Notes under the pieces: generated by a model
What the model was told of the DNA's origin: nothing
Database searches by the model: none
The model's input: the letters and a program-made list of their open reading frames with translations, nothing else
Program-made: the position numbers and the translations under genes
Virus record (IMG/VR): IMGVR_UViG_2687453623_000005
Direction: 5' to 3' (one strand)
Length of the DNA: 39,782 nucleotides
DNA from: a virus
Lineage: Duplodnaviria > Heunggongvirae > Uroviricota > Caudoviricetes
In this document: positions 2,034 through 2,791 of the stretch, piece by piece
Numbering within the stretch: position 1 is the first letter of the stretch
Layout: each line of letters starts with the position of its first letter

Positions 2034-2456
2034 ATGAAAACAAACACGTCAGATTTCACAATAACTATTTCAAAAAATGACCAAGCATTAATTGATAACC
2101 TGAAATACCTTGCGGAAAAACATAATAACGGACGAATTGCAATTAATTTACGACACATCACAGGAGTAACAATTGTAACCAGTTACTGGCATCTATATCT
2201 AATCGCTAAATCAGTACTTGAAAACAAAGATTCTGTTGTCAATGGAAGAGATATAGATACTCTTCCTGCACAAATCAAACCGATAGCCTATCAATTGCGT
2301 AATCGTTTTAAAAATGAAGGTGGGATTATATTTGACTTTCCCGCAGCTGTAGCCGTGAGCTTCTCTCGGGGGGATATACTTCACTCATTTCGTTTTGCTC
2401 TATCAGGTGACGAGACATTATGGCAGCTAGAAGATGCCGGGAGCAGCCCGGCATAA
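2034..2456 (+). CDS. Hypothetical protein, 140 aa, low-GC accessory gene
   Basis: ATG at 2034, in frame with track ORF 1791..2456. AT-rich relative to flanks. Confidence 0.5.
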   Translation: MKTNTSDFTITISKNDQALIDNLKYLAEKHNNGRIAINLRHITGVTIVTSYWHLYLIAKSVLENKDSVVNGRDIDTLPAQIKPIAYQLRNRFKNEGGIIFDFPAAVAVSFSRGDILHSFRFALSGDETLWQLEDAGSSPA

Positions 2457-2462
2457 ATCAAA

Positions 2463-2654
2463 TTAAAAATCAACCAGTTGTGTGACAGGTGGGTATTTAC
2501 GCTGAATTTTGTCAGTTACTAACGCCAGTAATATATGAATCTCTGTGTTTAATGCGTCTTTATCACCCGTCGTTTTTACCCTGGGAGGGTTAATGTTATC
2601 CAGAGCAGCACTAAGTTCACTCAACAAATTAACAACTTTTTTATCTTCTGACAT
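2463..2654 (-). CDS. Hypothetical small protein, 63 aa, convergent with preceding gene
   Basis: ORF track only; same AT-rich patch. Confidence 0.35.
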   Translation of the reverse strand: MSEDKKVVNLLSELSAALDNINPPRVKTTGDKDALNTEIHILLALVTDKIQRKYPPVTQLVDF

Positions 2655-2791
2655 GAAAACCTCTTAACAATTTAATTAAACATAAGCCAGGACCTGAACC
2701 GGCCAGTCCAAGTCCTAGACACACAAAAAAAATACCACAAATCAATACAAGGTGACACGAGTACACCTTACCGAAGGTACAGAGTTTTAAT

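Follow-up and report, generated by a model that had tools for sequence, protein, structure and literature searches.

What are two small, AT-rich genes doing directly behind cox in the early region of a P2-like prophage? The question concerns a stretch of 39,782 nt from a member of the Caudoviricetes (IMG/VR record IMGVR_UViG_2687453623_000005), which at its full length is referred to here as the window. A first-pass annotation of its sequence had singled out a 140-aa open reading frame (ORF) and a convergent 63-aa ORF, lying 6 bp apart, as a separately acquired pair that merited examination for a toxin-antitoxin (TA) relationship. Our analysis makes it very probable that the two genes, here called ORF140 and ORF63, are a real, conserved and linked cassette. 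What emerges is a small, conserved two-gene cassette that is itself new but falls within a familiar type, phage accessory cargo, and what had been two hypothetical ORFs of strains JJ1886, JJ1887 and EC958 can now be described as a defined, selected and linked unit in P2-like prophages of Escherichia coli and Salmonella.

ORF140 (2034-2456, plus strand) and ORF63 (2463-2654, minus strand) are convergent genes that both start with ATG, and their stop codons are separated by the 6 bp at 2457-2462. The ATG of ORF140 lies 4 nt past the cox stop codon (2027-2029). These coordinates agree with the earlier description, and the arrangement goes beyond what shuffling produces: of 2000 shuffled versions of the cassette, 0.1% contained an ORF as long as 140 aa or longer, and in none was this accompanied by another ORF of 63 aa or more. 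The AT-rich patch that had been described between cox and the other early genes was likewise recovered, as ~745 bp of 38% GC ending before the DUF4761 gene. GC content is 0.35-0.42 over 1900-2800 as against 0.50-0.52 on both flanks, and the cassette (2030-2773) has 38.3% GC compared with 51.9% for the whole window. In both ORFs, GC at the first codon position (0.49 in ORF140, 0.50 in ORF63) is well above that at the third (0.29 and 0.31), which is the pattern expected of genuine AT-rich coding sequence. The 140-aa product is soluble (isoelectric point [pI] 6.9) with a predicted alpha/beta character. The 63-aa product is acidic (pI 5.6) and has two predicted helices, a conserved NINPPR loop between them and a conserved KYP motif close to the C-terminus. 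RefSeq/PGAP lists both products as hypothetical (WP_000856387.1 and WP_001287828.1).

Divergent homologues provided the strongest evidence for the pair. An exhaustive HMMER scan with ORF140 over 1.84 billion representative proteins returned a single true remote homologue, the 138-aa protein P0014 of Salmonella enterica (E 2.7e-7), which is 34% identical and covers residues 12-127; a profile search then added a Salmonella variant, P0016. The contigs of both carry P2-like prophages with the order integrase, helix-turn-helix (HTH) repressor, Cox, small hydrophobic ORF and ORF140 homologue. In these Salmonella loci, a 62-aa ORF converges on the ORF140 homologue, with the stop codons overlapping by 4 nt. 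It is 40% identical to ORF63 (BLASTP E 7e-16), and its motifs (MNEDEKIINLLKD...ALNNINPPRI...IHSL...EKYP) parallel those of ORF63 itself (MSEDKKVVNLLSE...ALDNINPPRV...IHIL...RKYP). Two further loci came from IMG/VR. Locus L021, reached through the ORF140-family alignment, encodes a 136-aa ORF140 homologue (3754-4164; 26-31% identity depending on the alignment) and a 60-aa ORF63 homologue convergent on it (4161-4343). Locus L033 was reached independently through the ORF63-family alignment. There, a 62-aa ORF63 homologue (5001-5189; 40% identity, E 6e-14) converges with a 146-aa ORF140 homologue (5186-5626; 21% identity, E 6e-6) downstream of cox. In the other two loci, L007 and L009, the ORF63 homologues lie at 6414-6602 and 1019-1231, respectively, and each converges on an ORF140 homologue.

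In all four divergent lineages, the two genes stand tail to tail with stop codons that overlap by 4 nt (31 nt in L009, where the small ORF has 70 aa), and the pair follows cox, at times with one or two small ORFs between. The neighbouring genes vary from lineage to lineage. Scans of IMG/VR and the other collections found no locus among the divergent lineages that holds only one of the pair. The first-pass annotation had allowed that its small minus-strand ORF might prove not to be conserved; an ORF63 homologue is present in all four lineages. In every lineage both proteins are soluble and acidic to neutral, and the pair is the AT-rich part of its locus (GC 0.38-0.42). When 5.8 billion proteins were searched through a word index, every copy recovered was at least 96% identical, and E. 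coli was the sole organism named. Two genome-contig scans and one metagenome scan yielded no additional lineage.

Codon-aligned comparisons showed that substitutions in both genes fall most often at third codon positions, less often at first and least at second positions. Synonymous sites are saturated between the divergent lineages. The ratio of nonsynonymous to synonymous substitution rates (dN/dS) was 0.25-0.45 for ORF140 between divergent lineages, where computable, and 0.2-0.4 for the ORF63 family. Based on the order of codon positions and these ratios, both genes are translated and under purifying selection. In the close pair L007 and L009, the large protein differs by 17 changes (dN/dS 0.58, no third-position excess) and the small protein by one. 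Between the window and L033, cox retains 63% identity as against 21% for ORF140 and 40% for ORF63, which indicates that the pair evolves much faster than cox. Within E. coli, a sample of ~35 fetched loci in 18 haplotype groups contained five nonsynonymous and three synonymous changes in ORF140 and three and two in ORF63; this polymorphism is too sparse to inform on selection. No frameshift was found in either gene among these loci. The idea that the two are chance ORFs in AT-rich non-coding DNA can draw on the ~20% of cassette shuffles that hold some ORF of at least 63 aa. It is effectively refuted by the homologues at saturated synonymous divergence with their ordered codon-position changes, by the periodicity of GC content together with a strong Shine-Dalgarno (SD) sequence, and by the intact reading frames in E. 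coli.

Several variant forms of the two genes were also encountered. In variant P0012, ORF140 codons 1-32 are fused to plus-strand 2625-2651. This reflects a natural 495-bp deletion (2130-2624) in which most of both genes was lost together, although an assembly error is possible. Variant P0013 carries a frameshift of ORF140 by an A-run at ~2117-2121, and P0007 and P0010 are altered forms of ORF63; each of these may be a real variant or an assembly error.

Comparison with related prophages, which the first-pass annotation had recommended, showed that the content of the position after cox differs among P88, ETEC1734 and KY179. In phage P88, the DUF4761 gene follows cox after 37 bp with no gene between. 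The prophage of E. coli ETEC1734 shares the dmsA attachment site and has near-identical C and cox genes; its slot contains a single 68-aa hydrophobic ORF (L004 2540-2746). In KY179, where cox is more distant, the slot contains a different 64-aa ORF (L006 4084-4278). When the junctions of P88, ETEC1734, KY179 and C311 were aligned, similarity stopped exactly at the cox stop codon and returned ~17 nt before the DUF4761 ATG. Together with base composition, this places the AT-rich accessory cassette at 2030-2774. Many of the sampled E. coli matches that lack the pair begin to align at about window position 2775-2840, with the DUF4761/DUF4754 backbone kept. Because the P88 slot is empty, other prophages hold other ORFs and the junctions are sharply placed, we regard the segment at ~2030-2774 as an insertion into a variable slot. 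Judged from these alignments, the site next to cox serves as a small cargo slot of variable content, and the separate acquisition that had been proposed from composition is supported by the empty slot of P88 and the other small ORFs in related prophages.

The surroundings of the pair in the divergent loci hold further small ORFs. In L007, the ORF140 homologue is immediately preceded by a strongly hydrophobic 37-aa ORF (MYDLKNLCIDILAIIAIACLSTVLMAATIKFIITYLF; 5876-5989), and the DNA of L021 at ~3630-3740 is nearly identical to this region. Only a 3' remnant is present in L033, and the ORF is absent from E. coli; judged by this distribution, it may be a third, dispensable component. Another hydrophobic ORF, conserved on the minus strand ahead of the small gene in L007 and L021, was not accepted as a gene, since it overlaps a plus-strand 259/292-aa gene whose N-terminus accounts for the conservation. 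An ORF of 131-134 aa stands between cox and the pair in L033 (5685-6080) and L009 (229-633). It weakly resembles the N-terminal part of the P2 GPO capsid scaffold/protease (below threshold, at a Pfam E of 0.008) and might encode a decoy or interference factor against related phages.

The 667-bp region of the pair was found in 270 of 5,426 complete E. coli genomes (~5%), as a single copy and always chromosomal, and is at least 99% identical in 263 of these carriers. When a query running from cox to DUF4754 was used instead, 1421 E. coli genomes matched, of which 270 have the pair.

Does the pair belong to any known family? ORF140, ORF63 and their divergent homologues gave no significant match in Pfam, PHROGs, NCBIfam or PADLOC. 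The best family match was DUF1408/phrog_5450 (E 0.01-0.04), which lies below threshold and whose own function is not known. Against the sequences of the PDB, neither the individual proteins nor the family profiles had a match (best E 0.8). The remark that the pair has no recognisable motifs has therefore held against all five resources. AlphaFold2 modelled ORF140 with a mean confidence (pLDDT) of 42 from the single sequence, and with a pLDDT of 51 and a predicted TM-score (pTM) of 0.49 from a four-sequence alignment; Foldseek comparison of the ORF140 models with PDB and BFVD returned nothing with E < 0.3. The homology and structure searches that had been suggested at the outset therefore produced divergent homologues and, on the structural side, no lead. 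Profiles of the pair scored at most 3.3 bits against the early proteins of phage 186 (CI, Apl, CII, Fil, Dhr, Tum, Orf97 and others) and of a P2-type phage. By these scores the pair does not match a known 186/P2-type early function, which the first-pass annotation had named as an assignment that would undo its view. Rfam contains no RNA family that matches within window positions 1000-4000, and a type I or type III TA system or a known small RNA at the pair was rejected on that basis. Searching the literature by protein accession gave no paper. On the strength of these searches, ORF140 and ORF63 are to be regarded as founders of two unclassified protein families.

How the two genes are expressed was addressed by reading the signals around them. 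The 3' end of cox contains an SD-like AGAGG (2018-2022, plus strand), 11 nt ahead of the start codon of ORF140. Since ORF140 has no room for a promoter of its own and its SD is within cox, we infer that ORF140 is co-transcribed with cox, presumably from the C-repressed early promoter. ORF63 has a strong SD, AAGAGG, 5 nt upstream of its ATG (2660-2665, minus strand). Upstream-region alignment of the small gene from all lineages further revealed a predicted extended -10 element, TGgTATTTT (2729-2737, minus strand), that aligns with TGcTATGTT and TGcTATCTT of other lineages; the columns TGTG-n-TAT-n-TT are invariant across the six sequences. No -35 element was recognised upstream of it. The predicted 5' leader of ORF63 contains a 14-bp stem-loop (2687-2718, minus strand; -25 kcal/mol, z -3.3, a stability that none of 200 shuffles reached). 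At the corresponding position, L033 also has a hairpin (z -6.6), as do, in weaker form, L007 and L021. The small-gene leader has a common order of -10 element, stem-loop within ~10 nt, U-rich stretch, SD and ATG.

On the other side of ORF63, the final codons of ORF140 contain an 8-bp, GC-rich hairpin (2434-2454; -15 kcal/mol, z ~-2), which lies 9-29 nt past the ORF63 stop codon on the minus strand and is a candidate terminator of the ORF63 transcript. Its equivalent in L021 is more stable (-17.7 kcal/mol, z -4.4) and is followed by a U-tract, and the L033 junction has a terminator-like site. The hairpins would not be expected to halt the early operon because A-rich sequence follows them on the plus strand. 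Given the extended -10, the leader hairpin, the strong SD and the hairpin after the stop codon, ORF63 looks like a self-contained leftward transcription unit, placed antisense inside the rightward lytic operon.

Other observations touch the same signals. An A8 homopolymer at 2725-2732, which varies from six to eight bases among E. coli copies, reads as a T-run on the minus strand, where it overlaps the predicted -10 of ORF63 in its 3' part and enters the leader. Two variants of the ORF63 SD region, 2662 T>C and 2665 T>A, segregate in E. coli. In L007, from Salmonella, a promoter-like/hairpin cassette of ~130 nt is repeated on the minus strand (6603-6760 and 7805-7960), preceding the ORF63 homologue and an unrelated 103-aa ORF (7493-7804), respectively. 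This cassette is GC-rich upstream of the -10 and is shared with L033 (4860-5000); it is absent from the window. Late-promoter dyads of the P2 Ogr type (TGT-N12-ACA) were searched for by eye upstream of ORF63 and none was found.

The TA relationship that had been raised for the pair did not hold up in its classical form. A type II addiction module, with ORF140 as toxin and ORF63 as antitoxin, shares with the pair two small, closely linked genes on a mobile element, an acidic smaller protein and a conceivable logic of neutraliser and effector. Type II modules are expected to be co-directional, autoregulated bicistronic operons, as a rule with start and stop codons that overlap or adjoin, whereas the pair is convergent in the window and in the four other lineages. 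Neither a TA superfamily nor a defence family was matched, and ORF63 has no antitoxin DNA-binding domain (Pfam, NCBIfam, PADLOC, PHROG and PDB). An antitoxin should also not be lost beside an intact toxin. The transposon-directed insertion-site sequencing (TraDIS) table for EC958, supplementary file 2 of Phan et al. 2013 (PMC3789825), lists 19 insertion sites and 247 reads over 173 bp for the gene EC958_1050. Its insertion index of 0.11 is like that of its neighbours, and it was scored as non-essential and had no serum phenotype (PMC3789825). EC958_1050 corresponds to the first 90% of ORF63, and the EC958 locus was verified by its identical proteins, the same 1662-nt offset from the integrase start and the same 137-nt gap to DUF4761. 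ORF140, cox and C are not annotated in the TraDIS table. Because EC958_1050 tolerates insertions at normal density, ORF63 is dispensable in an EC958 lysogen with intact ORF140, which argues against a classical antitoxin role. The caveat is that transcription of the candidate toxin may be shut off in the lysogen; the dispensability of ORF63 fits such silence of ORF140. A TA-like relationship that acts only when the lytic operon is on is conceivable, but we consider a classical type II module to be quite improbable.

Which function would account for a pair with these properties? We tentatively favour, at somewhat short of an even chance for the statement as a whole, an acquired two-gene accessory cassette of the moron type that works through an effector and its antagonist. 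A fast-evolving cassette would have been acquired horizontally and seated in the variable slot after cox. ORF140 would be made early in lytic growth alongside Cox, and hence only on infection or induction, while ORF63, with a promoter of its own, would be expressed whatever the state of the lytic operon and thus in the lysogen too. As a small acidic protein, ORF63 might then antagonise or regulate ORF140. This is the weakest and most speculative step, and it is suggested by the persistence of the tail-to-tail linkage. Early-operon transcripts would read antisense through ORF63, and convergent transcription could reinforce mutually exclusive expression. The pair would in that case be an effector and antagonist gated by the lysis-lysogeny switch. 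Its purpose would likely be host takeover or conflict between phages or with satellites rather than plasmid-style addiction, an arena suggested by the rapid evolution of the pair and its restriction to prophages. A soluble, acidic-to-neutral character is typical of protein-binding phage accessory factors. The more specific proposal of a new two-component conflict module of P2-like prophages, in which ORF140 is an early-lytic effector (for host takeover, abortive infection or anti-satellite/anti-phage action) held in check by a lysogen-expressed ORF63 through mutually exclusive expression, we regard as unlikely in itself.

Several points weigh against the effector-antagonist reading. No family, structure or motif offers a biochemical handle on the pair; the AlphaFold2 models are poor (pLDDT 42 and 51), and PADLOC has no match for any member of either family. 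The ORF63 promoter and terminator are predictions at the level of consensus, and a generic sigma-70 scan did not call the promoter. The large gene is preceded by an upstream region of its own in three lineages, and strict co-transcription with cox may be specific to E. coli. Finally, four or five lineages are too few to measure co-evolution.

Two other explanations must be weighed against it. The proteins could be independent accessory factors, for example anti-defence or host-modulating proteins, that were co-acquired on one segment and do not antagonise each other. Both are acidic and soluble, and no motif hints at an enzyme and its inhibitor. The 17 residues that differ in the large protein between L007 and L009, set beside the single one in the small protein, indicate that their recent evolution was uncoupled, and the L007 promoter/hairpin cassette that also fronts an unrelated gene suggests modular reuse. 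What makes us doubt independence is that linkage and tail-to-tail geometry have outlasted divergence to 22-40% identity while the neighbours changed, and that neither gene was found alone in any divergent lineage. We consider this explanation unlikely, as we do the conflict module.

Alternatively, the pair could be a lysis-lysogeny module like 186 CII/pE or lambda CII/PRE, in which ORF140 would govern a leftward promoter that yields a transcript antisense to cox, with the small protein assisting in the establishment or stability of lysogeny. The map position is the same as that of the 186 cII/pE module with fil and dhr, after cox/apl and with a leftward promoter facing the early operon; by annotation, apl of 186 is succeeded by cII, with the leftward pE where the two meet. 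The extended -10 of ORF63 without a recognisable -35 is also what is often seen in activator-dependent promoters, and the promoter cassette that occurs twice in L007 points leftward both times. Yet the pair shows no sequence similarity to the 186 module. No HTH homologue of CII is present: profile scores stay at or below 3.3 bits, Pfam detects no HTH, and the ORF140 homologues, which do not resemble 186 CII, Apl or CI in sequence, are acidic to neutral (pI 5.2-6.9); this charge counts against a CII-like DNA-binding role. The small gene is apparently terminated before cox, and read-through of its transcript into cox and C, as an analogue of PRE or pE, is weakened by the hairpins or terminators that immediately follow the small ORF in L021, L033 and the window. 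The cassette is missing altogether from P88 and from many relatives, and it is thus not a core part of the switch. A lysogeny module is in our judgement rather improbable.

With the acquired accessory cassette as the favoured reading, the closest general likeness is to morons, the extra transcription units that lie between backbone genes of phages such as the lambdoid HK97 and HK022. Similar to these, the pair lies between genes that are adjacent in P88, has a distinct base composition (38% versus 52% GC) and varies in presence among similar prophages, and its small gene has a predicted promoter-like element of its own and flanking hairpins. It differs in being a two-gene convergent unit whose ORF140 is apparently wired into the lytic early operon. 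A second comparison is with the accessory and defence loci of P2-like prophages (old, tin and fun(Z)), which also place cargo in a variable slot. Hotspots for such genes in P2 are the gpA-gpQ interval and the tail region (PMC9122126, PMC13586616), and 8% of recognised P2 defence systems sit between integrase and gpA (PMC13586616). The pair lies outside both main hotspots, and no curated PADLOC defence model matches either of its families. The cox-proximal position therefore represents a cargo slot additional to the known P2 hotspots. If an effector and antagonist gated by the lytic switch are indeed encoded here, the pair would represent a new effector-immunity architecture among prophage conflict systems; if not, it is an ordinary pair of phage accessory genes. 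In either case, the pair is widespread in sequence type 131 (ST131) and is a cheaply testable candidate for a prophage accessory function.

The prophage of the window is P2-like, belongs to the Peduoviridae and is close to Xuanwuvirus P88. Identical DNA (100%) stands beside dmsA in ST131 strains of E. coli, JJ1886 and EC958 among them, and three deposited 'phage' records are also 100% identical to the window DNA. The integrase gene occupies 1-992 and the HTH immunity repressor C 1062-1403, both on the minus strand. The rightward early operon opens with cox (1508-2029, plus strand), which encodes a 173-aa protein of the Cox family (PF10743 E 1.9e-7; phrog_23196 E 1e-116) that RefSeq labels 'Cox family DNA-binding protein'. 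Beyond the pair, the conserved backbone picks up again with the DUF4761 early gene (2792-3142, plus strand; Pfam PF15958 E 2e-68) and the DUF4754 gene (3443-3685), and the operon continues rightward from there as far as the replication endonuclease gene.

Other features of the window and related loci were noted in passing. At window positions 936-939 in the integrase gene, the sequence reads CCCC where JJ1886 has CCCCC; the 1-bp deletion shifts the frame after about codon 19, and it is either a defective integrase that locks the prophage in place or a sequencing error. The intergenic region between C and cox contains a perfect 9-bp inverted repeat, AAGATAACC-tttt-GGTTATCTT (1427-1448), which from its position is likely an operator for the C repressor. 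In L021, a minus-strand gene between integrase and repressor (1023-1982) encodes a 319-aa protein that carries a BRCT domain at its N-terminus and weakly matches PADLOC PDC-S48. Further along the window, Rfam gave gathering-level matches to isrK and the C4 antisense RNA at 5154-5228 and 5264-5351 (plus strand). A small ORF (5408-5638) lies just downstream, and its P88 counterpart is annotated 'derepression protein'. Judged from these matches, the 5154-5638 region looks like a C4-controlled antirepressor locus of the P1/P7 style within a P2-like prophage, and the same arrangement of isrK, C4 and small ORF is also found in L007 and L033.

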